Shown here piece by piece: positions 978 through 15,075 of a stretch of DNA of 51,940 nt. The notes below the pieces were generated by a model. The model worked only from the letters and a program-made list of their open reading frames with translations, made no database searches and was not told the DNA's origin. The position numbers and the translations under genes were made by a program. This DNA comes from Minisyncoccia bacterium (GTDB taxonomy: Bacteria; Patescibacteriota; Minisyncoccia; 2-02-FULL-40-12; IGHO2-01-FULL-4-A). Where the stretch lies: NCBI GenBank assembly GCA_041499075.1, contig JBGQJN010000002.1:1-51940 (forward strand), given 5' to 3'. The first letter of the stretch is position 1; each line of letters opens with the position of its first letter.

Positions 978-2963
978 ATGGACACCATTTCACTCTATAA
1001 AAACAGGATTGATGCGCTGATGGACATTCTCTTTGGTGCGGGAGTGTCTAATCCTCAGACGATCATCGAACAATTGAACTACCTGCTCTTTCTTCGCGCG
1101 CTTTCCATCAAAGACGATGAGGCAGAGCTGCTCGGAATCACTGATCAGAGCGAGAAGATCTTCACAGGAGATCTCGCAAAGTACCGATGGCAGAACCTAC
1201 TCGCACTCAATGCAGAAGACTTGTTCAAAACGCTAGAAACTTCTTTCGATCTCCTGCAAAAGAAATCGAAAAATCCCACGGTTAAGTTACTTTTCCGCAA
1301 TGCTCATATCAAGATCTTCGACAAGCCAACACTTCGTCGCGTTCTGCATGAGATAGAGACGTTCGCAAAGGAACTCGACGCGATCGCGCACGAAGGAAAC
1401 AAAGACGTATTCGGTGACATGTACGAGTATCTGCTTTCGAAGCTCTCCTCGGCTGGAACAAACGGGCAGTTCAGAACTCCACGTCACATTATCGACTTCA
1501 TGGTCAAAGTCGTTGATCCAAAGAAAAACGAAACGATACTCGATCCGGCATGCGGAACAGCGGGCTTCCTTGTCGCCGCATATCGTTATATTGCCGGTGA
1601 GTACACCAGTGACAAGCTAAAGAAAGCTGGCAGCCCTCGCGCGATGGATAAACTGTCGGCTGACGAGAAAAACTTCCTGTTCAACCACATGTTCACCGGC
1701 TTCGACAGCGATGAGGACATGATCAAGTTCGGAATGATGAATCTCCATCTCCACGGACTGACAAAGTCACGTCTAGCTCGACAAAACTCACTCACTGACA
1801 CGACGGGGATGAAAGACAAGTTTGATGTCATCCTAGCTAACCCGCCATTCAGTGGGAAGATCGACGAAGAAAGCGTCTCGGAAGATCTGCGTATGGGAAC
1901 AAAGGCAACTGAACTTCTTTTCCTGCGCTTCATGATGGACCACCTCTCACTCAAAGGTAAACTTGCTGTGATTGTCCCAGAGGGGGTTGTGTTCAATGCT
2001 TCGAAAGCCCACACTAAAATCAGGCAAATGCTAATTGAGAAAGGACTTTGGGCTGTTGTTTCATTACCCTCAGGTGTCTTTAATCCTTACGCTGGAGTTA
2101 AGACCAGCCTGCTTTTCCTCGATCAAGAATTAGCTAAAACAAAAGACGAGTTGCTGTTCGTAAAAATCGAGAATGACGGTTTTGACTTAGGTGCGCAACG
2201 ACGACCGTTGGGAAACAATGACCTTCCTTCAGCATTTGAGGCGTTGTCTCAATGGAAGGTTGGAAAGAAAGTCAAAAGTGAACTGACGACTTGGGCCAAC
2301 AAAGAAAAGATCTTAAATAATGTCGACTTAAGTCTTTCAGGTGATCGTTATCAGATGGCAGCGGAGCACAGTAATACAAAATGGCCATTGGTAGAGTTGG
2401 GTGAAGTCTGTGAGATCAATCCTAAAAAAAGTGAGCTCTCTCAACTTCCAAAAGACACACTCGTCTCCTTTGTGCCAATGGCAGATCTACCTGAAAATAA
2501 AAGTACTTTTGACGCAGTACAATCGAGGAAACTTGGTGAAGTAATAAAAGGCTATACGTACTTCAAAAACGATGATGTCCTTCTTGCTAAGGTTACGCCA
2601 TGCTTCGAGAACGGAAAGGCGGGGATCGCTAAAGACTTAAGCAACCAAGTCGGTTTCGGGTCGAGCGAGTTTATAGTTCTGCGATCGTCTCAAAAAATCC
2701 TCCCCGAGCTTATTTATTACTTCATTACGACAGATGAGTTCAGGAAGCTCGGCAAAAAACGTATGACGGGTACAGGAGGCTTAAAGCGCGTCCCTACAGA
2801 CTTTGTTAAGACATTCAAAGTTCCACTCCCTCCTTTGGCAGTCCAAAAACAGATTGTGGCTGAACTCAAAAAAGACGAGGAGCAAGTTAAGAAAAAGGAG
2901 GGTGAAATTGCTCATCTCAGAAAGGAGATGAAGGATAAAGTTGCACAGGTTTGGTCGGCGTAG
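978..2963 (+). CDS. Type I R-M methyltransferase fused to a single-TRD specificity module (HsdM-HsdS half fusion)
   Basis: N6-adenine MTase motifs LDPACGTAGFLV (motif I) and ILANPPFSGK (motif IV). From about residue 470 there is an HsdS-like target recognition domain (WPLVELGEVCEINPKK..VSFVPMADL..KVTPCFENGK..GSSEFIVLR). It ends in the conserved helical LPPLAVQKQIVAEL region. Confidence 0.8.
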   Translation: MDTISLYKNRIDALMDILFGAGVSNPQTIIEQLNYLLFLRALSIKDDEAELLGITDQSEKIFTGDLAKYRWQNLLALNAEDLFKTLETSFDLLQKKSKNPTVKLLFRNAHIKIFDKPTLRRVLHEIETFAKELDAIAHEGNKDVFGDMYEYLLSKLSSAGTNGQFRTPRHIIDFMVKVVDPKKNETILDPACGTAGFLVAAYRYIAGEYTSDKLKKAGSPRAMDKLSADEKNFLFNHMFTGFDSDEDMIKFGMMNLHLHGLTKSRLARQNSLTDTTGMKDKFDVILANPPFSGKIDEESVSEDLRMGTKATELLFLRFMMDHLSLKGKLAVIVPEGVVFNASKAHTKIRQMLIEKGLWAVVSLPSGVFNPYAGVKTSLLFLDQELAKTKDELLFVKIENDGFDLGAQRRPLGNNDLPSAFEALSQWKVGKKVKSELTTWANKEKILNNVDLSLSGDRYQMAAEHSNTKWPLVELGEVCEINPKKSELSQLPKDTLVSFVPMADLPENKSTFDAVQSRKLGEVIKGYTYFKNDDVLLAKVTPCFENGKAGIAKDLSNQVGFGSSEFIVLRSSQKILPELIYYFITTDEFRKLGKKRMTGTGGLKRVPTDFVKTFKVPLPPLAVQKQIVAELKKDEEQVKKKEGEIAHLRKEMKDKVAQVWSA

Positions 2964-3003
2964 TCTTCCTGCAGGGAATTATGTAAACCATGACAATTTA
3001 TGA

Positions 3004-3375
3004 CAAAAAACGCGGTAGTCGTAAATTGATCCAAATCACTAGAATATGCCTTATTTAGGGAGTAATTTGAGAAAACAGAGATGCTTTTGAGGTATCTCTA
3101 TGACCTCCTAATTTACATGACGCAAAATTACCGCAAATTACCGCAAAAAATGACGGGGTCACAAATCGGTGAATATCACTAAAATACGGCCTAGCTGGCG
3201 TGCGCTTTGCAGTCTTTGCGAGGCTTTTAGGATGTTCCAATTCCGGTAAATTGTCATCATGCCAACTATGCAAATTTAGGCAAAGAAAATGCGGGAGTCG
3301 TAGTTCGACGCATATCGCTAGAAAATGGCTCAGCTGGTGGGCGTTTTGATGACTTTGTTAGGCTTTTAGGGCCTC
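3004..3375. repeat. Three degenerate tandem direct repeats with a 139-140 bp period
   Basis: The motif CAAAAAA.G.CGG..GTC....T.G....ATC.CTA.AA.A..GC recurs with GTC at 3018, 3158 and 3297. Units 2 and 3 also share CAGCTGG.G.GC.TTTG....CTTTG..AGGCTTTTAGG. A small CGCAAA(A)TTAC x3 repeat lies at 3121-3150. Confidence 0.6.
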
Positions 3376-3626
3376 TCAATTAACATCCAATTTGCATCAT
3401 GGCACTCATAGGTCAATACGGGCTCATTTCCACGACATTTACCGTCTTGATCCGGCCGGTCCGGTAAAGGCAAGCAGAGGTTCGTTGGAGACAAGCCTTC
3501 GGTGCGAAAACCCTCTTGATATTGGCGGCCACCCCAATCACACGACGCCCCTGTATGTGTGTAAAAAACGTACGCAAAAATAGCGATCGCCACGATGCCT
3601 AAACCTATCGCGAGAGCCTTATTCAT
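3366..3626 (-). CDS. Hypothetical small membrane-anchored Cys-containing protein (start moved to the internal MNKALAIGLGIV)
   Basis: An N-terminal hydrophobic helix follows the internal Met. This start overlaps the stop of the upstream 76-aa ORF by a few nt. The longer 141-aa version would overlap that ORF heavily. Confidence 0.4.
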   Translation of the reverse strand: MNKALAIGLGIVAIAIFAYVFYTHTGASCDWGGRQYQEGFRTEGLSPTNLCLPLPDRPDQDGKCRGNEPVLTYECHDANWMLIERP

Positions 3627-3849: not shown

Positions 3850-4392
3850 AAGCGTGATCCGACTTATTAGCTGATAAACACAAAACCCGTCACGGGTCTC
3901 TGGCTTTCGCCAGACGTACAGGTTTCCCCATACGGCGGATCACGCAAACCCCATGACGGGTTCTCTATGCGCGATCCGACTTTCCAGCCATGCCACCGGC
4001 GAACCGATGGTTTAGGCTGTTGCCCTTGCGGGGCTATTCAACTGCTCTTACAGCGTAGCAAAAAAGTGCGAAAAAAGACACTTTTGACGGCACATGGCAC
4101 CAAAGTTATCCACTTGCAGGAAAAAACGGCGGCCGGGATAATATGAGTACGTCGTTCTTTGAAGTTCCAGACAATTCATAAACTGTTGGAGTCTTTCTTC
4201 GGGTAAAACCGTTGGAAGCAACCTCACCGACACAGCAATGTGTTCGTGAGCTACTGAGCTGTATTCAGTGTCAGTGGACCGTTATGCGTACTACGTTAGT
4301 GGCATCGCAGTAGAAATACTGCGTCGAACACACTGTAAAAAGTGTGTCAGGTTATGGAGCCCGAGAGTCAACACTCTCGAGTTGGGATTAGA

Positions 4393-4657: not shown

Positions 4658-6355
4658 ATGAAGGATGCGACTGAATACTGCGTCATAGACTGTCGTGTAA
4701 GTGACCCTAGTCAATTGGAGGGAGGCAGTCTTGACGATCAAGAAATAATTGGGCGACTTGAAGCTCAGAAGTTAGGCCTTAAGATATCTAAGGTCTTTAA
4801 GAAGCCTCACTCGGCTACTACGTCCGAAAGAGATGATATTGAGGAGATATTAAGTTACATAAAAGGAGAGAGAGCGAAAGGGGTTAACCTCACGAAGTAC
4901 ATTGCTAAGAGCATCGATAGGATGACTCGCATGGGATATCCGGCCTTCTTGGACTTCAAAAATGAACTTGAGCATATTGGAGTCGCCATTGTCGATGCTC
5001 AGGGTATTATTCAACCAAAAAGAAACACGTTAGGACATTTCCCCGGAAACTTCGAGTACAAGTGGAGCGTGCACTCTCCAAGCGAGGCGGGAGAAATGCT
5101 CGAGGCATACAAAGGTAAAGCGGAAGTTAGGGACATTTTGACAAGGATGGTGGGAGCGGAAATCAAACTTGTTCAAGATGGATACGCGGTGCGGAGAGCT
5201 CCTGATGGTCTGAAAAACAAACGTGTCATGGTTGATGGAAAGAAGAAGGTTATTAGAGAGGCTAACCCAGAGCGCGTGGACTATTTCATAAAGATGTTCG
5301 AGCTCCTTGCTGATGGTGCGGATTACCCAGAAGTTGCCGACCGTCTGAACGCAGTCGGGTTTAAGACTCAAGTCTACGACCGATGGGACAGAAGCGACAA
5401 AGAAAACCCAAAAGTTGTCGGTAAAAAAGGCGGCAGTCCACTAACGGCCAAACAATTACAGCGATACATCTTGCAGACTGAGTACGCAGGCGTGAGCTAC
5501 GAGAAGTGGACAAAGCATCGGCCTGTAAAAATGCAGCAGTTCAACGGAATTGTGCCCATTGATACATTCAATAAAGCGAATCGAGGGAAAATCTATATCA
5601 GAATGAATAAGGATGAGACGGTCGAAGTTTTGCACAATTACTCACCGTGGGGCAGAGTTAAACGTCTCAAGGATAATCCGAAGTATCCATGGAAATGCAT
5701 CCTCTGTCCCTCCTGTCAGTCAGAGATGCTCGGCAGTTCTGCAAAAGGCAAGTACGATGGGTATCACTGCGGTGCTTGGAAGTCAGGAAAGCGGGCACAC
5801 AAGCATTTTCGAGTGACGAAAAAGGACTTTGAAGATAGCGTATGTGCTTACTTGGACAATCTGAAGTTCGAGGAAGGGTTCATGGCAGGTCTTGAATTGC
5901 ATCTTGTCGAGGAATATCGCAAGAAAGAAAAGGAGATCCTTATCGACTCCTCTCTGATCAGCAGGACTGTTTCTGACCTCAAGGCAGAACTTGCTCAAAA
6001 GATCCACGCATTCGGTCTAGCAGAGAGTCCAACAATGCGAAGGCACCTTGAAGCACAAGCAGAGGCATTGGAAACGCAAATTGAGAAGGCGGAGGGAGAG
6101 CGTGGTCGTGTTGAGCTCAACGAGAGAAGCATTCGAGGATTTCGACGCTACGTTGAATACGTAATGGAACATCCGGCAGAAATCCTGACAAAGGCTGACA
6201 ATTTGCAGGCTCGACGGGCACTTATGAGCCTGTTCTTCGAGGAAATGCCGACCTACCATGACATACTCAATGGAACTGCAAAACTAACAAGCCTATTCAG
6301 GCTTTCTGAAGCATTTAAGGTTGATAAAACCCAACTGGTGAGCCCACCGGAGTAA
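4658..6355 (+). CDS. Large serine recombinase (integrase)
   Basis: N-terminal resolvase-type catalytic motif (VIDCRVSDPSQ), a recombinase domain, a zinc ribbon (CILCPSCQSE...YHCG) and a C-terminal coiled-coil. At 565 aa the size fits the family. Confidence 0.85.
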   Translation: MKDATEYCVIDCRVSDPSQLEGGSLDDQEIIGRLEAQKLGLKISKVFKKPHSATTSERDDIEEILSYIKGERAKGVNLTKYIAKSIDRMTRMGYPAFLDFKNELEHIGVAIVDAQGIIQPKRNTLGHFPGNFEYKWSVHSPSEAGEMLEAYKGKAEVRDILTRMVGAEIKLVQDGYAVRRAPDGLKNKRVMVDGKKKVIREANPERVDYFIKMFELLADGADYPEVADRLNAVGFKTQVYDRWDRSDKENPKVVGKKGGSPLTAKQLQRYILQTEYAGVSYEKWTKHRPVKMQQFNGIVPIDTFNKANRGKIYIRMNKDETVEVLHNYSPWGRVKRLKDNPKYPWKCILCPSCQSEMLGSSAKGKYDGYHCGAWKSGKRAHKHFRVTKKDFEDSVCAYLDNLKFEEGFMAGLELHLVEEYRKKEKEILIDSSLISRTVSDLKAELAQKIHAFGLAESPTMRRHLEAQAEALETQIEKAEGERGRVELNERSIRGFRRYVEYVMEHPAEILTKADNLQARRALMSLFFEEMPTYHDILNGTAKLTSLFRLSEAFKVDKTQLVSPPE

Positions 6356-11146: not shown

Positions 11147-12226
11147 TTAATTGCCGGGTTTAGGTATGAATGGCCGAGCAGAAGACCAGTCACCATCAAA
11201 AGTATTCTCAAGCGATGAAACAATTTCAGGTTTGGAAAACAGAATGCCAAGTTCTCGATTGGATTGCAGGGATTGTGTTGAAAAATTTTCTGAACCGACA
11301 AAAGCTCTGGTACTATCGGCAATAATAACTTTGGCGTGAATGTAAAATTTGGCACTTGAAGCATAAGTGCGCAGATTGACTCCTTTGACGGTAAGTTTGG
11401 CAAAAGCATTTTTCCAGGTCGTAGCGTAGGTCATGGTTATTCTAACTTGAACGCCGCGATTGGCGGCTGACTCGAGTGCCTGAATAATACGCTGATCAGC
11501 CATCTCTTCGTTGTAAATATCCAGTGATCTTGAAGCCGAGCCGATCAAAGCCAGCAAAGTATCGGCAGATTCTGGACTCCAGACTAGATCATCGCCATTG
11601 CCGGCTTTGACTCCCAAACCCTGCCAATCCGAATCAAAGGCATTCTCAATGGCGGTGACGTCATTTTTATCATCATCGACAATGCCGAAATCACGGCCGG
11701 AATCGTAATAACGCGGCATGAGATTGAATGTCATAATGAGTGCCCAGGCGTTATCAATGACTAATGTTTTCTGGTGAGTTATCGGGAAGTAGCTTGGTGC
11801 CCATCGAACCGGTACGCCCTGTCCGTGGAGATAATCATAGGTTGTCTGATTTGGGCGATTGCCAAAATGCGAACTGTTATCCAGGATCACACGCACCGAT
11901 ACGCCGCGTTTTTCCGCATCCGCCAGCGCCTGTTCAATAGCCTGGTCGTCAAGTTCATAAATCACAAGATCAACTGATTGATGAGCTTGGCCTATGGCAT
12001 AGGACAAAAAAGACATGCCCTGATCAGGCTCAGTAATGAGAGAAAGGGGTGTTTGCGGCGAAAGACTTGTGATTTCAGCAAGACCGCTCTTGCTGTTATC
12101 GTCGCCAAGCGGCATTAGCCGATGGTAACTCGGCCAGAAATACGCCGCTGCAGCCGCAAATACGCCAATAATCGCGAATTTTATTATGCCTTCTGTTTTT
12201 ATGCTTTTCATATGTGACAAGATCAA
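11147..12226 (-). CDS. Phospholipase D-family protein with two HKD motifs and an N-terminal membrane anchor
   Basis: HQKTLVIDNAWALIMTFN and HAKVIIADSTRAFVGSENFS (HxK..D..GSxN). Confidence 0.8.
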   Translation of the reverse strand: MILSHMKSIKTEGIIKFAIIGVFAAAAAYFWPSYHRLMPLGDDNSKSGLAEITSLSPQTPLSLITEPDQGMSFLSYAIGQAHQSVDLVIYELDDQAIEQALADAEKRGVSVRVILDNSSHFGNRPNQTTYDYLHGQGVPVRWAPSYFPITHQKTLVIDNAWALIMTFNLMPRYYDSGRDFGIVDDDKNDVTAIENAFDSDWQGLGVKAGNGDDLVWSPESADTLLALIGSASRSLDIYNEEMADQRIIQALESAANRGVQVRITMTYATTWKNAFAKLTVKGVNLRTYASSAKFYIHAKVIIADSTRAFVGSENFSTQSLQSNRELGILFSKPEIVSSLENTFDGDWSSARPFIPKPGN

Positions 12227-12317
12227 AATTAGAAGCAGTCTCTAAGCTATCAGAATCAATGCTCTGTTGCCAATATTTAAGAAAATCAAAAAGGACCATC
12301 TCTGGTCCCCAGGTTTA

Positions 12318-12755
12318 CTACGGGTTAATTCTGTTGATAAAATATTGCCTTTCTAATTTAGAAGTCAGGGTTGGGATCGGTTTTACGCTGTAACTCATTG
12401 TTAGTTTGTAGTGGTACCTTTTTCCAGAAGGCTTATATGATTCTATCCAATAGGCATCTTTGACGTCTCCCGAGTGAAAAATCATAATAGGAAGGCCCAT
12501 TTTACTTGGCTCAGGATGTTTATGCATCGGTCGGTCTTGCCAATAAATATCGCCGTTGAGCCATAGGCAACCGGGAGTCGCCGTTAACCATTGTGGTGCG
12601 ACAACAGCTCTGACTTTATCAAGTCTCAAAACACCGCTCTCTCCGTTGGTTAAAACTAATTTTCTGGAGGAAGGGTTAAAAACTAAAAGCCATAATAGTA
12701 ATGCACAAATGGCCGTAATAACTAAACAACCTAATATGAAAAGTATCATATTCAT
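12318..12755 (-). CDS. Hypothetical membrane-anchored protein (145 aa)
   Basis: N-terminal TM helix, an AGGAGA RBS, and its own promoter upstream. Confidence 0.6.
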   Translation of the reverse strand: MNMILFILGCLVITAICALLLWLLVFNPSSRKLVLTNGESGVLRLDKVRAVVAPQWLTATPGCLWLNGDIYWQDRPMHKHPEPSKMGLPIMIFHSGDVKDAYWIESYKPSGKRYHYKLTMSYSVKPIPTLTSKLERQYFINRINP

Positions 12756-12780
12756 CTCCTAGTTGTTAAGGAATAATACA

Positions 12781-12809
12781 ACAATAGCACCCGCAAGTGC
12801 TATTGTCAA
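12781..12809 (-). promoter_or_regulatory. Sigma70-type promoter (TTGACA-17 nt-TATTGT) with an upstream A-tract
   Basis: -35 at 12804-12809 and -10 at 12781-12786 (- strand) with a 17-nt spacer. It precedes the RBS and ATG of the 145-aa gene. Confidence 0.55.
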
Positions 12810-12853
12810 TTTTTTAGCGGGCCTGCCCGCCGTAACTCGCTTCGGCGAGCGAA

Positions 12854-12991
12854 GGCGGGAGTGCTAGGAATCTCACTCGCAAATCCTCAACCGGGTGGAC
12901 TCGGATTTGCTCTTGGAAACCAAGCGGTTTCCAACTTCCTCCTCGGGGAAACACCCAGTTTCCCCGACCCCTTCTCGTTCGAATCCTAGCA
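12854..12991. ncRNA. Candidate structured RNA or miniature element abutting tRNA-Trp (copy 1); strand unresolved
   Basis: No ORF. A closing helix encloses three hairpins. The termini copy the tRNA-Trp T-arm and 3' acceptor strand. It is homologous to 13754-13894, with complementarity kept where helix sequence differs. Confidence 0.45.
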
Positions 12992-13045
12992 AAATCTTCA
13001 CAGTTATCAAAATGAACTACCGAACAGCAGTTCATTTTGATATTG

Positions 13046-13116
13046 CGGGAGTGCTAGGATTCGAACCTAGATACCTGGTTTTGGAGACCAGAGTCTTGCC
13101 ATTGGACGACACTCCC
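13046..13116 (-). tRNA. tRNA-Trp (anticodon CCA)
   Basis: Cloverleaf read by hand: acceptor GGGAGTG/CACTCCC, anticodon arm CTGGT-CTCCAAA-ACCAG, T-arm CTAGG-TTCGAAT-CCTAG, discriminator G. CCA is not encoded. Confidence 0.9.
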
Positions 13117-13118
13117 AA

Positions 13119-13195
13119 GGCGGAGCGATACATTCGGCCTGTACATTCATGCTACTGCATTCAGTATTTCCTCGCCTACACTCGTCAACTATTTC
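13119..13195. repeat. rpmG/tRNA-Trp spacer, homologous to 6746-6809 (copy A)
   Basis: Same conserved blocks as copy B, with an extra internal segment. It starts at the rpmG stop codon and ends 2 nt before the tRNA-Trp 5' end. Confidence 0.55.
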
Positions 13196-13347
13196 TTGCT
13201 TTCCTTGTGCACTGTGTGTGCACGGCAATGTTTGCAGAATTTCTTCAACTCAATCAGACGCGTGACTAATTTCTTATTCTTAGTGGAAAAATAGTTAACA
13301 CGCTTGCATTTCTCGCACTTCAATTTTATTAAACTATCCTGACTCAT
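13189..13347 (-). CDS. rpmG: 50S ribosomal protein L33
   Basis: 52-aa ORF absent from the track (under 60 aa): MSQDSLIKLKCEKCKRVNYFSTKNKKLVTRLIELKKFCKHCRAHTVHKESKK. It has the CxxC...CxxC zinc ribbon typical of L33 and sits in a tRNA cluster. Confidence 0.85.
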   Translation of the reverse strand: MSQDSLIKLKCEKCKRVNYFSTKNKKLVTRLIELKKFCKHCRAHTVHKESKK

Positions 13348-13362
13348 ATTGTTTAGTTAGCT

Positions 13363-13437
13363 TGGAGCCGACGGTGAGAATTGAACTCACGACCTACTCC
13401 TTACCATGGAGTTGCTCTGCCGCTGAGCTACGTCGGC
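13363..13437 (-). tRNA. tRNA-Thr (anticodon GGU), CCA encoded
   Basis: Acceptor GCCGACG/CGTCGGC, anticodon arm ACTCC-ATGGTAA-GGAGT, T-arm GTGAG-TTCAATT-CTCAC, then TCCA. Confidence 0.9.
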
Positions 13438-13482
13438 ATGTTTAGCTAAAGATTTATTTTTTTAGTTTCTTATAGAATAAAA

Positions 13483-13737
13483 TTATAGTAAACTGCGCAA
13501 TCTTTTTTGGGCTAGTTCATATGCATGTTTGGTTAATTCTTCCATAGCTTCCACCTCACCCCAAAGCTCTCTGCTTAAATTTGATAAATCGGCTGGATCG
13601 TGATTTTGTCTGATATTTTCTAAAAGTTCAGAAATCGTTTTCTGTCTCATACCGATCAGTTCCATGGTAAATTCAAAATCTTGTTGTAATTCTTCTGAAC
13701 TTGGCTTTTCTTTTTCCTTCTTGTCTTCTAATGACAT
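13483..13737 (-). CDS. Hypothetical acidic helical protein (84 aa)
   Basis: ORF located between element copy 2 and tRNA-Thr. No recognisable domain and no clear RBS. Confidence 0.45.
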   Translation of the reverse strand: MSLEDKKEKEKPSSEELQQDFEFTMELIGMRQKTISELLENIRQNHDPADLSNLSRELWGEVEAMEELTKHAYELAQKRLRSLL

Positions 13738-13753
13738 GGAATTTTGTTATTGC

Positions 13754-13894
13754 TGTGAGGGCGGTAGGAATCTTGCGCGTGAGCGCTCAACCCAGTGGAC
13801 TCACGCTCACTTTTAAAAACCTTGCGGTTTTAATATTTCCACAACGGGAAAACTGTTGTTTTCCCGACACCCTTTCCTTGTGCAAATCCTACCA
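13754..13894. ncRNA. Candidate structured RNA or miniature element abutting tRNA-Tyr (copy 2); strand unresolved
   Basis: Same four-helix layout as copy 1, at the same spacing. The termini copy the tRNA-Tyr T-arm and 3' acceptor strand. Confidence 0.45.
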
Positions 13895-13949
13895 TATCTC
13901 TCAATAATTGAAAACTAAAAGCCCATAAATAGGCTCTAGTTTTCAAATG

Positions 13950-14033
13950 TGGGGGCGGTAGGATTTGCACCTACGTAGGCACAAGGCCAGCAGATTTACA
14001 GTCTGCCCTCGTTGACTGCTTGAGTACACCCCC
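13950..14033 (-). tRNA. tRNA-Tyr (anticodon GUA), class II with long variable arm
   Basis: Acceptor GGGGGTG/CGCCCCC, anticodon arm GCAGA-CTGTAAA-TCTGC, long variable arm, T-arm GTAGG-TGCAAAT-CCTAC, discriminator A. CCA is not encoded. Confidence 0.9.
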
Positions 14034-14056
14034 GATATGACTTAATGTTTGTCAAT

Positions 14057-14356
14057 CTATTCTACGATTAAATCTTCTGGTAAAAATTGATGCTTCCTCG
14101 AATTCTCTGGTATATCGTCGTCACCTTCATAAGTGACGGATATGGAACCACCCAATTCAACTTTTTCTACGGTTGCTCTATAACTAGCAAGAAAACTAGG
14201 ATCATCATTCTCAATCGGTAAACCAACCTCTTTTTCTTTAAAATCTAGTAGTTTTTGCCGACCGATTTCGCTTAATCTAACGCGAGAACCAACCTTAATA
14301 GTGCGTCCATTTTTATCTTTAAATTCGGTATCGGGTTATTCGCGATGGCTAATCAT
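14057..14356 (-). pseudogene. Uncalled ORF with an in-frame TAA at codon 7 (possible pseudogene or mis-started gene)
   Basis: ATG at 14356 and TAA at 14336-14338. A further 92 protein-like codons follow in the same frame (PDTEFKDKNGRTIKVGSRVRLSEIGRQKLLDF...PEDLIVE) to the TAG at 14057-14059. There is no in-frame ATG/GTG/TTG start near the 5' end. Confidence 0.35.
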
Positions 14357-14395
14357 TTCATAATAGAGTTACTTTCTCGCTTACGTTTGCCGGTG

Positions 14396-14467
14396 AGCCA
14401 GCGGTCGGGATTGAACCGACGACCTACTGTTTACAAAACAGTTGCTCTGCCACTGAGCTACGCTGGC
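14396..14467 (-). tRNA. tRNA-Thr (anticodon UGU)
   Basis: Acceptor GCCAGCG/CGCTGGC, anticodon arm ACTGT-TTTGTAA-ACAGT, T-arm GTCGG-TTCAATC-CCGAC, discriminator T. CCA is not encoded. Confidence 0.9.
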
Positions 14468-14469
14468 AT

Positions 14470-15075
14470 CTACTCAATTTTTTTGGTAAGTTTCTCTAAC
14501 TTATTTCTAATCACATCATCAGTAGGATCTAATTCCAAGGCTTTTTTGAAAGATTCATAAGCGTCATTCCATTCCCCTATCTTCAGGTATATATTACCAA
14601 GTTTTTTGTATAACTTGGAATCTTTAGGATTCCTAGCTATTTCAATAATCAGTTTCTGCTCTTCCTCCCGCGGGTCTTTGTTGGCACCATTGCTGGCATT
14701 TTGTGATTCAATTTCTTGTGCGCCCTGAAGTGCGATCTCGCCGCTGATTAGTTCTTCATGTTCAACTACGGTTTTGCGTACCCGATGGATAAGACTATTA
14801 GTAAAAGTATCTATACGCAAAGAGAGTAATCGCAGTTTGCGTAAAATTTTCTCAAATTCAGCCAGAAAATTAACTCTGTATTCATGCAGACTCAATCTGC
14901 TTATCCTCTGCGCTATTTCCGGGAAAAACTCCGCCCAAAAACTTTTTTCATTTTGTTCCGAGCCTGTCAGTATCTCTGGCGTAAGCTTTTTTAAATAAAC
15001 GAATTTTCGGGCAATAATCCAAAAAATACCGGTCAGTGAGCCAATGAAAACAACCAATGGTATGATGAAAAACAT
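14470..15075 (-). CDS. Membrane-anchored TPR-repeat protein
   Basis: N-terminal TM helix. C-terminal TPR-like sequence LYKKLGNIYLKIGEWNDAYESFKKALELDP. Confidence 0.6.
   Translation of the reverse strand: MFFIIPLVVFIGSLTGIFWIIARKFVYLKKLTPEILTGSEQNEKSFWAEFFPEIAQRISRLSLHEYRVNFLAEFEKILRKLRLLSLRIDTFTNSLIHRVRKTVVEHEELISGEIALQGAQEIESQNASNGANKDPREEEQKLIIEIARNPKDSKLYKKLGNIYLKIGEWNDAYESFKKALELDPTDDVIRNKLEKLTKKIE

Follow-up and report, generated by a model that had tools for sequence, protein, structure and literature searches.

Analysis of a 51,940-nucleotide stretch of contig JBGQJN010000002.1 from a Minisyncoccia bacterium (hereafter the window) outlined two homologous non-coding units, of a kind measuring about 150-195 bp, located behind the transfer RNA (tRNA) genes for tryptophan and tyrosine. 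Each unit begins directly behind the discriminator base of its tRNA and, following the tRNA strand, presents an A/U-flanked hairpin, an antisense segment, a core RNA and a second copy of the tRNA 3' end. Our preferred interpretation, held with roughly even confidence, is that the unit is a non-autonomous insertion cassette that targets tRNA 3' ends, encodes a new structured RNA and is moved in trans. Homologous cores are found behind several different tRNAs, each with ends matching its own tRNA; the units are insertions relative to empty orthologous sites; and selection maintains the fold of the RNA as read on the tRNA strand. The elements of both units, and the two threonine tRNA genes of the same array, are listed below (tRNA calls by ARAGORN and Rfam).

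13045-13116, minus strand: tRNA-Trp (CCA), host of unit 1 (Rfam tRNA, 60.1 bits)
13059-13045, minus strand: proximal repeat copy, the last 15 nt of tRNA-Trp (TCCTAGCACTCCCGC, exact 15-mer)
13005-13042, minus strand: A/U-flanked hairpin, 3 nt past the discriminator of tRNA-Trp (14/14 perfect arms, about 17 bp when folded)
12977-12991, minus strand: antisense (anti-T) segment of the Trp unit (TGCTAGGATTCGAAC, reverse complement, 15/15, of 13052-13066, approximately tRNA-Trp positions 53-67)
12867-12974, minus strand: core RNA of unit 1, 108 nt (covariance model 116.1 bits, E 2e-33)
12971-12966/12872-12867: helix P2 of unit 1, with hairpins H1 at 12965-12946, H2 at 12933-12914 and H3 at 12910-12879
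12855-12869, minus strand: distal copy of the tRNA-Trp 3' end (TCCTAGCACTCCCGC, 15/15)
13949-14033, minus strand: tRNA-Tyr (GTA), host of unit 2
13963-13948, minus strand: proximal repeat copy of tRNA-Tyr (TCCTACCGCCCCCACA)
13908-13946, minus strand: imperfect A/U-flanked hairpin behind tRNA-Tyr, from folding (its inner part, 13918-13937, scores as terminator-like)
13880-13893, minus strand: anti-T segment of the Tyr unit (GGTAGGATTTGCAC, reverse complement, 14/14, of 13957-13970, T-loop and T-stem)
13767-13874, minus strand: core RNA of unit 2 (covariance model 108.7 bits, E 4e-31)
13871-13866/13772-13767: helix P2 of unit 2 (one U-U mismatch as aligned), with H1 at 13865-13846, H2 at 13833-13814 and H3 at 13810-13779
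13754-13769, minus strand: distal copy of the tRNA-Tyr 3' end (TCCTACCGCCCTCACA, 15/16, C70 -> T)
13437-13363, minus strand: tRNA-Thr(ggt)
14467-14395, minus strand: tRNA-Thr(tgt)

The direct repeats lie where an initial annotation of this stretch, made from the sequence alone, had placed them: 12855-12872 matches 13045-13062 at 17 of 18 positions (94%, spacing 190) for Trp, and 13754-13769 matches 13948-13963 at 15 of 16 (94%, spacing 194) for Tyr. The hairpins that it had described behind each tRNA were likewise recovered, the one behind tRNA-Trp presenting the design of a terminator, and its proposal of a homologous structured core at the two tRNAs is borne out by 77% identity over the aligned units, with eight compensatory pairs between them and fold z-scores of -3.9 and -3.6. 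The two Thr tRNAs, said to lack the unit, returned no match to the covariance model of the core, which within the window detects it only behind tRNA-Trp and tRNA-Tyr. The tRNA-specific identity of the distal copy begins at T60/C61, the preceding bases (GAGAUUCC) being conserved unit sequence and not tRNA, and the T-loop differs between the two copies (TTCGAAT versus GAGATT), so that any crossover would lie 3' of position 60. At the other end, native trailers at empty sites mostly begin with C or CA, and the one or two bases shared past the discriminator therefore need not belong to the repeat. An identical block of 14-16 nt is present in both repeat copies in four of seven units (window Trp, L006, L013 and L017; handles with the prefix L denote loci in other contigs), with a single change in the other three. 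A given 16-mer would be expected to recur by chance within 300 nt, with at most one mismatch, about 3e-6 times, and the layout is repeated in six independent contigs.

The covariance model of the core yields 109-121 bits in all eight units of the family, with no other match across about 200 kb of related loci. Its consensus fold is a four-way junction in which P2 (GGGGUC/GAUUCC) closes hairpins H1 to H3. H1 is variable in sequence, with compensated changes, and H2 conforms to AAACCG-GNNN-GGUUU. In H3, an 8-bp stem leads through a symmetric internal loop (GAGU/UUGA, with tandem G-A) to a terminal CC-ACNN-GG, and the H3 apex (GAGUCC-ACNN-GGUUGAG) is almost invariant, with AUNN in one of the eight copies. 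In the model-based alignment 96.9% of 256 cells are standard pairs, two-sided changes affect 12 of the 32 pairs (26 cells), the covariation score was reached by none of 500 shuffles, and with the 3' partners slid out of register pairing never exceeds 63%. Although the alignment had itself been fitted to the structure, an independent MAFFT/RNAalifold run returned the same helices. The wobbles comprise 22 G-U and no A-C on the tRNA strand, indicating that the RNA is read in the tRNA direction, and pairing amounts to 96.9% on this strand versus 88.3% on the plus strand. Sixteen of the 22 G-U sit in P2, which has no two-sided covariation, and the other six in H1 and H3.

No reading frame is open in all copies, core lengths spanning 108-110 nt, and with lengths varying by 1-2 nt a protein-coding unit was rejected. 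Rfam 15, applied as an E-value scan of positions 12000-15000 and as gathering-threshold scans of the whole window and nine loci, contains no family matching the unit, returning at threshold only tRNAs and an unrelated LOOT RNA at 3899-4018. The 108-nt core, absent from Rfam, is a candidate new functional RNA class. Other RNA-based explanations were also discarded. Hammerhead, hairpin, twister and other self-cleaving cores show no motif conserved across units by eye and no Rfam E-value match, and ARAGORN detects no transfer-messenger RNA, permuted or otherwise. For a group I intron or splicing frame, any 190-nt frame placed within the repeat ends with the same base as its 5' exon, which is incompatible with the U at the end of the exon and the G at the end of the intron that such an intron requires, and there is no Intron_gpI match. 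Reading of the alignment revealed no complementarity consistent across units for a kissing interaction between the H2 and H3 loops or for a tail-junction pseudoknot. A putative sigma-70 promoter inside the Trp unit (TTGATA-16-TGcTAGGAT) is not kept in L006, L011 or L013, and promoter-like sites occur at the frequency expected from shuffles.

Further members of the family came from exact-motif searches of 185,579 species genomes and a metagenome set, keyed to the block with the strongest conservation (GAGTCCACNNGGTTGAG ... AGATT). The species genomes returned a single true match, behind a tRNA-Gln (L006), and the metagenome set five (L010, L011, its duplicate L015, L012 and L013); a walk along neighbouring genes added L017, which resembles L013 and carries one substitution in the motif. 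The remaining motif matches (L007-L009, L014 and L016) were attributed to chance on the basis of sequence context, lack of a tRNA and model score, as were those of three viral-contig scans, which the covariance model rejects, and blastn against phage and plasmid collections found no match to the unit. The family thus comprises eight units in seven distinct contigs, with six units outside the window, mostly from Yanofskybacteria, to which L013 is assigned by its FtsX homologues. Four host tRNA identities, each with a cognate tail, were identified: Trp (window), Tyr (window and L011), Gln (L006, L013 and L017) and Ser (L010). In L012 the core is intact with no tRNA upstream, and the tail resembles the 3' end of tRNA-Pro. 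All units terminate in ...GAGAUUC and then the sequence of the cognate tRNA, which runs from about position 61 as far as the discriminator. Each locus contains only two copies of the tRNA end, and in L011 the next tRNA gene begins 40 nt past the distal copy, indicating that the unit is self-contained and not the edge of a large island.

Orthologous sites lacking the unit, which the initial annotation had proposed seeking at Trp and Tyr, were found for Trp, Gln and Tyr, and the sequence is hence polymorphic and not an ordinary trailer conserved at all tRNA loci. In L001 and L004 tRNA-Trp is followed directly by CCTTCGCCCACCGAAGCGGGCTACGGCGGG...CCCGC, and in the window the orthologous sequence comes after the distal copy; on alignment, the 190 nt of the unit fall in a gap, and the flank CCTTCGC..CCGAAGCG..TACGGCGGG..CCCGC is common to both. 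Similarly, tRNA-Gln in L031 is followed by CTTCGGCAAGC, the same 11 nt that follow the distal copy in L006, with 184 nt in the gap. At both loci the ancestral trailer resumes exactly behind the distal copy. In L003, tRNA-Tyr is present without a unit. The flank shared at the Trp site was observed in its own right as a conserved pair of small hairpins 3' of tRNA-Trp in three genomes (CCTTCGC.C.CCGAAGCG.G.TACGGCGGG....CCCGC; 12815-12853 on the minus strand, L001 631-700 and L004 4250-4320), which in L001 and L004 runs on into a GAAGGAAGG-containing segment and then a terminator, and which may be another small RNA or leader.

The 5' part of the units is more variable than the core. Most open with CAA or CAT and a 13-18-bp A/U-flanked hairpin, L013 and L017 have a 6-bp hairpin and L010 has none; the hairpins of window Tyr, L006, L011, L012 and L013 are equivalent to that of window Trp but not homologous to it. 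The segment that follows, absent from the initial annotation and added here, is in both window units a perfect cognate antisense copy of the T-arm. Its target is tRNA positions 53-66 in the window units as well as in L006 and L011, and the 3' strand of the acceptor together with a degenerate T-arm in L013 and L017; in L010 it is limited to GGAAUC. The Tyr segment covers the unusual T-loop TGCAAAT, and the same segment is found in the Tyr unit of L011; its inclusion of this T-loop indicates that the match is cognate-specific and not a generic T-loop match. A perfect pairing of 14-15 bp is possible between the antisense segment and the upstream T-arm, or alternatively one of 7-12 bp with the distal copy, which forms a closing helix (P1); in the minimum-free-energy fold, P1 can be formed by the first 7 nt of the Trp anti-T segment. 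GAUUCC likewise has two mutually exclusive partners: GGGGUC, giving P2, and the GGAA that is invariant at the junction of H1 and H2. Over the six bases directly before GAUUCC the two Tyr units read GCAAGA and every other unit GUGAGA, preserving complementarity to the Tyr-specific antisense segment.

The core of the L011 Tyr unit is 87% identical to that of window Trp, with nearly identical H1 and H2, and 68% identical to that of window Tyr, the two window cores sharing 62%. Core likeness is thus incongruent with tRNA identity, pointing to retargeting or to mosaic recombination between units. Distal copies carry private mutations (a C -> T change in window Tyr, a 1-nt deletion in L011 and a T -> C change in L010). 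At L018 (3477-3920), the order is a 5' fragment of an older tRNA-Gln allele, a GIY-YIG open reading frame (ORF), an entire tRNA-Gln from a different allele, 27 nt of spacer whose ends resemble those of a unit, and finally a 3' fragment of the older allele. The distal fragment matches this older allele and not the present gene, indicating that distal copies behave as displaced relics.

The same tRNA-Gln locus, 3' of ftsX, takes many forms among relatives: empty in L031, with a full unit in L013 and L017, with a core-less duplication in L022-L025, with a GIY-YIG gene, a replaced tRNA and a unit remnant in L018, with a LAGLIDADG gene and a replaced tRNA in L028 and L029, and without a tRNA in L019-L021. 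In the core-less form (about 3764-3835 in L022) a 24-nt direct repeat without mismatches (GAATCCAGGCCCCGCAGTTCAGTT) lies behind tRNA-Gln, its 18-nt spacer (CGGAATTTATCAATGTGA) keeping the end motifs of the unit (TTCGGAAT ... GTGAGA); this form represents either the product of a deletion or a landing pad standing empty. FtsX is 94% and the unit 99% identical between L013 (7419 onward) and L017 (1753 onward), and similarity ends exactly after the distal copy, as if, judging from the sequences, this copy still served as a recombination site. Behind tRNA-Tyr, L004 (3332-3534, z = -10.1) and L002 (2360-2509, z = -5.5) carry inserts with a hairpin, an antisense T-arm piece, a core and a distal copy, in which covariance models R1 and R2, with filters off, detected no homology to the window core; we treat them as putative separate families with the same layout. 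Further insertions were observed nearby. L004 3575-3905 contains an 87-aa GIY-YIG ORF between 20-bp inverted repeats (ggcctcacacctacttagct / agctaagtaggtgtgaggcc), followed by a duplicated 5' half of tRNA-Thr and an intact tRNA-Thr. In L002 the anticodon loop of tRNA-Thr(ggt) (3186-3445) is broken by an intron-like insert of about 200 nt, with no Rfam call at the gathering score, and a LAGLIDADG-like 197-aa ORF (2592-3185) lies just upstream. In L010, the variable arm and T-arm of tRNA-Ser recur in part for a third time at positions 606-660 (ACCGCAAGGTGTCCATGTTCGAATC), just after the Ser unit, and positions 700-2970 contain a gene for a BglII-like restriction endonuclease together with a LexA-S24-N4/N6 methylase fusion. 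The 3' ends of tRNA genes are a hot spot for mobile DNA in these related genomes.

Under the favoured insertion-cassette interpretation, an enzyme acting in trans would place the cassette at the segment running from the T-loop to the 3' end of a tRNA gene. This could proceed by staggered attack anchored on the T-arm palindrome, duplicating the last 15-17 bp or so as Cas1-family casposases do, or by recombination inside the segment, as with T-loop-specific integrases; by either route the tRNA would stay intact. The RNA would be made together with the tRNA or just after it, and the antisense segment and tRNA-derived tail would zip its ends together. Our guess is that the core RNA is a recognition handle for the helper enzyme or, alternatively, a regulatory RNA derived from the trailer. 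The initial annotation had already listed a miniature element inserted at T-loops and mobilised in trans, and the filled and empty sites, the cores behind four tRNAs and the lack of a conserved frame uphold that proposal in outline.

Several results weigh against this interpretation. The window ORFs scanned against Pfam include no tyrosine integrase, Cas1, reverse transcriptase, TnpB or IS110, the first and third of which the initial annotation had proposed seeking, and the ORF lists of the flanks of L006, L011 and L013, which did not undergo a Pfam scan, show no recombinase-like ORF. The only recombinase seen in the window is a large serine recombinase, which is not expected to generate such repeats, as this family does not make direct repeats of this kind. 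No convincing terminal inverted repeats were found: left ends have in common only CA, an A/T-rich stretch and, in some copies, TGAAAAC; left ends (CAA plus hairpin) and right ends (GAGTGAGATT) are not inverted repeats of each other; and the internal pair formed by antisense segment and tail derives from the tRNA and sits within the direct repeats. An element that exists only as DNA has no need of a perfect antisense T-arm copy, which none of our models, the favoured one included, explains. The genomes with empty sites are fairly distant (neighbouring proteins 59-87% identical), the next homologue of the window TPR protein is only 62% identical, and no very close or near-isogenic filled/empty pair was found, so that recent movement is not demonstrated. 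The family is rare by exact-motif scans, with one true match in species genomes and five in the metagenome set. Finally, mosaic recombination between units could imitate retargeting; the six bases before GAUUCC track tRNA identity.

A somewhat unlikely alternative is that the units are stationary functional RNAs of tRNA trailers, that is, small RNA modules co-transcribed with the tRNA, with a 5' end generated by tRNA 3' processing and with an antisense segment and tail serving for a closing helix, a processing signal or pairing with the cognate tRNA or its precursor. Ancient gains and losses, along with homologous exchange via the conserved tRNA, would then account for their patchy spread in place of dedicated transposition. 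The initial annotation had raised such a co-transcribed trailer carrying a T-arm/acceptor mimic, a proposal that is compatible with the results and has the strand right. It is further supported by the lack of a hairpin between tRNA and core in L010, by the unrelated L002 unit, whose hairpin is a branch inside a closing helix of antisense segments and tail, by the presence in most units of a closing helix that involves the tail (with the T-stem in window Trp, window Tyr and L006, the acceptor in L013 and L017, and GGAAUC/GAUUCC in L010) and, in Tyr units, by co-variation between the antisense segment and the six bases that precede GAUUCC. The terminator-like hairpin directly behind the tRNA in most units, ahead of the core, however, tells against this alternative. 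So do the empty orthologous sites, where trailers continue exactly from the distal copy, the private mutations of the tail, including the L011 deletion that weakens P1, and shuffle controls in which the duplex between 5' region and tail in L010 and L011 is no better than chance. The incongruence between core likeness and tRNA identity and the intact core of L012, with no tRNA upstream, also weigh against it.

A further reading, which we regard as unlikely, is that of an RNA-defined element that retargets itself. The tail of the transcript, in most cases with the antisense T-arm, would direct or template insertion behind tRNAs by an enzyme encoded in trans, through RNA-guided integration or target-primed reverse transcription, and each copy would then carry the address of its new host tRNA. 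A related proposal, quite unlikely in our judgement, likens the unit to a short interspersed element (SINE): the processed trailer RNA would be reverse-transcribed, by a reverse transcriptase encoded in trans, at a nick in the T-loop of the tRNA gene, its tail annealing to the nicked antisense strand as primer-template, and a staggered second nick would give the 15-17-bp duplication and a host-matched tail. In keeping with an RNA-mediated route, both junctions fall at the discriminator, a boundary defined by how the RNA is processed and not by the DNA sequence, and every tail corresponds to the tRNA at its own locus or to an older allele of it; the strongly conserved RNA structure abutting the tail, the lack of terminal inverted repeats and a duplication length that varies between 15 and 24 bp are also in line with the SINE-like proposal. 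Against it stand the lack of a reverse transcriptase in the window ORFs scanned, of an A-rich or other 3' tail, and of 5'-truncated copies other than the core-less forms of L018 and L022. Moreover, the antisense segment matches the current tRNA and not that of a previous host, which the model does not predict. We know of no bacterial precedent for such an RNA-mediated element.

It is very unlikely that the units are scars of larger islands or prophages, with attL and attR arms left behind after deletion and a small RNA gene that had lain beside attP, comparable to cis-mobilisable elements derived from integrative conjugative elements. Their layout of restored tRNA, terminator, element DNA and displaced 3' fragment is indeed that of tRNA-gene islands (PMC4383910). 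The loss of synteny exactly after the distal copy in L013 and L017, and the restriction-modification island and additional tRNA-Ser fragment just downstream in L010, suggest that the distal copy may still be an attachment site. Independent deletions, however, would not reproduce the same internal boundaries in eight units behind four identified tRNA identities and in L012, neither the covariance model nor motif scanning of genomes, metagenomes and viral contigs turned up a longer, integrase-bearing form, and the G-U asymmetry denotes selection on RNA and not on protein-binding arms. [quoted passage not shown]

The units constitute a new structured-RNA family and a new, very small form of tRNA-gene-targeted insertion element. 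If mobile, they would be among the smallest site-specific elements known in bacteria, and the single-copy tRNA genes of reduced Candidate Phyla Radiation (CPR) genomes would be contested sites; close relatives have, at the same loci, introns, cassettes with homing endonucleases, duplications lacking the core and no fewer than three unrelated structured inserts. The core is of note for its almost invariant tandem-G-A internal loop and the unusual triple use of GAUUCC. To our knowledge there is no precedent for the order of sense tRNA end, hairpin, antisense copy, core and sense tRNA end, a layout that could lead to a new integration or RNA-guided mechanism. A self-retargeting element, if confirmed, would represent a bacterial counterpart of SINEs or a relative of guide-RNA transposons with no protein in cis. 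In practical terms, the units leave partial tRNA fragments that mislead tRNA annotation and island-finding programs.

For ribosomal protein L33 and the TPR protein of the window, the best homologues are those of Candidatus Yanofskybacteria (CPR/Patescibacteria). An 84-aa ORF lacking any Pfam match (13483-13737, minus strand) starts 16 nt past the distal copy of the Tyr unit, and the interval between tRNA-Tyr and tRNA-Thr(ggt) in which it lies is hypervariable in relatives, holding a 58-aa ORF in L003, GIY-YIG in L004, LAGLIDADG in L002 and nothing in L011. Further away, the LOOT RNA (RF03000, 91 bits, 3899-4018 on the minus strand) adjoins serine recombinase and methylase ORFs. The recombinase, the 565-aa large serine recombinase mentioned above (Resolvase and Zn_ribbon_recom, 4658-6355, plus strand), lies about 6.5 kb from the units, and the ORF at 978-2963 (plus strand) is an N6-methylase fused to a specificity subunit. 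The LOOT RNA, the recombinase and the methylase/specificity gene may form a separate mobile or defence island.

Among known systems, the units come close in layout to the islands and prophages that tyrosine integrases insert at tRNA genes, and to their integrase-less derivatives, the cis-mobilisable elements. Displaced tRNA fragments mark integrated elements (PMC4383910), and the attP core of mycobacteriophage Ms6 lies within a tRNA T-loop (PMC1762012); as in the units, the tRNA remains intact and a displaced 3' copy marks the far end (PMC4383910, PMC1762012). The block of identity running from in or at the T-loop to the tRNA end and the terminator after the restored tRNA are also shared. The units differ in measuring 150-195 bp rather than kilobases, in lacking an integrase in cis or among the window ORFs scanned, in the presence of homologous units at several tRNAs of one genome, and in an interior with RNA-type covariation, G-U asymmetry and an antisense copy of the T-arm.

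The casposon of Aciduliprofundum boonei provides a second parallel. Its casposase uses the T-arm region of tRNA-Pro as an anchor and duplicates the adjacent 15 bp (PMC5137440), and, as in the units, this duplication of about 15 bp lies right 3' of a palindromic T-arm that acts as a positioning 'leader' (PMC5137440). The duplication in the units measures 15-17 bp (24 bp in L022) and starts right after the T-loop in all of them, taking in the last 14-15 bp of the tRNA, whereas that of the casposon overlaps the tRNA by 5 bp. The units also lack terminal inverted repeats, neither Cas1 nor PolB is present among the window ORFs scanned, and what is inserted is an RNA gene about 175 bp long. Miniature inverted-repeat transposable elements have terminal inverted repeats next to a short target duplication, and the units lack such terminal repeats, and ends of the IS200/IS605 type were rejected because the left hairpins are homologous neither to each other nor to H3.

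The free-standing GIY-YIG and LAGLIDADG cassettes of L004, L018, L002 and L028 share loci and partial tRNA duplicates with the units, and the right junction of the L018 cassette lies at about position 61, as theirs does; the units differ in having no endonuclease gene and in leaving the T-arm of the proximal tRNA unaltered. Small RNAs from the 3' external transcribed spacers of tRNAs, such as 3'ETS-leuZ of E. coli, are short, unstructured sponges and are not mobile. They would resemble the units as functional RNAs in a same-strand tRNA trailer, with a 5' end that potentially arises from tRNA 3' processing, and differ from them in lacking the 108-nt four-way junction, the sense and antisense tRNA segments and the insertion polymorphism.

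The right-end guide RNAs of IS200/IS605 elements are the omega RNAs of TnpB, and the delocalised CRISPR RNA of type V-K CRISPR-associated transposons homes to tRNA genes. Like the units, both present an RNA scaffold followed by a 3' tail of about 16 nt that spells the target, which in the units lies beside the T-loop. No TnpB, TnpA or Cas12k was found among the window ORFs scanned and no Rfam match to related models was obtained, the E-value scan having returned four tRNAs and matches far below gathering scores, with no omega RNA model among them. In contrast to these guides, the tail of the unit is a true duplicate of flanking DNA that adjoins the ancestral trailer, and the intact proximal copy of the unit would be a self-target.

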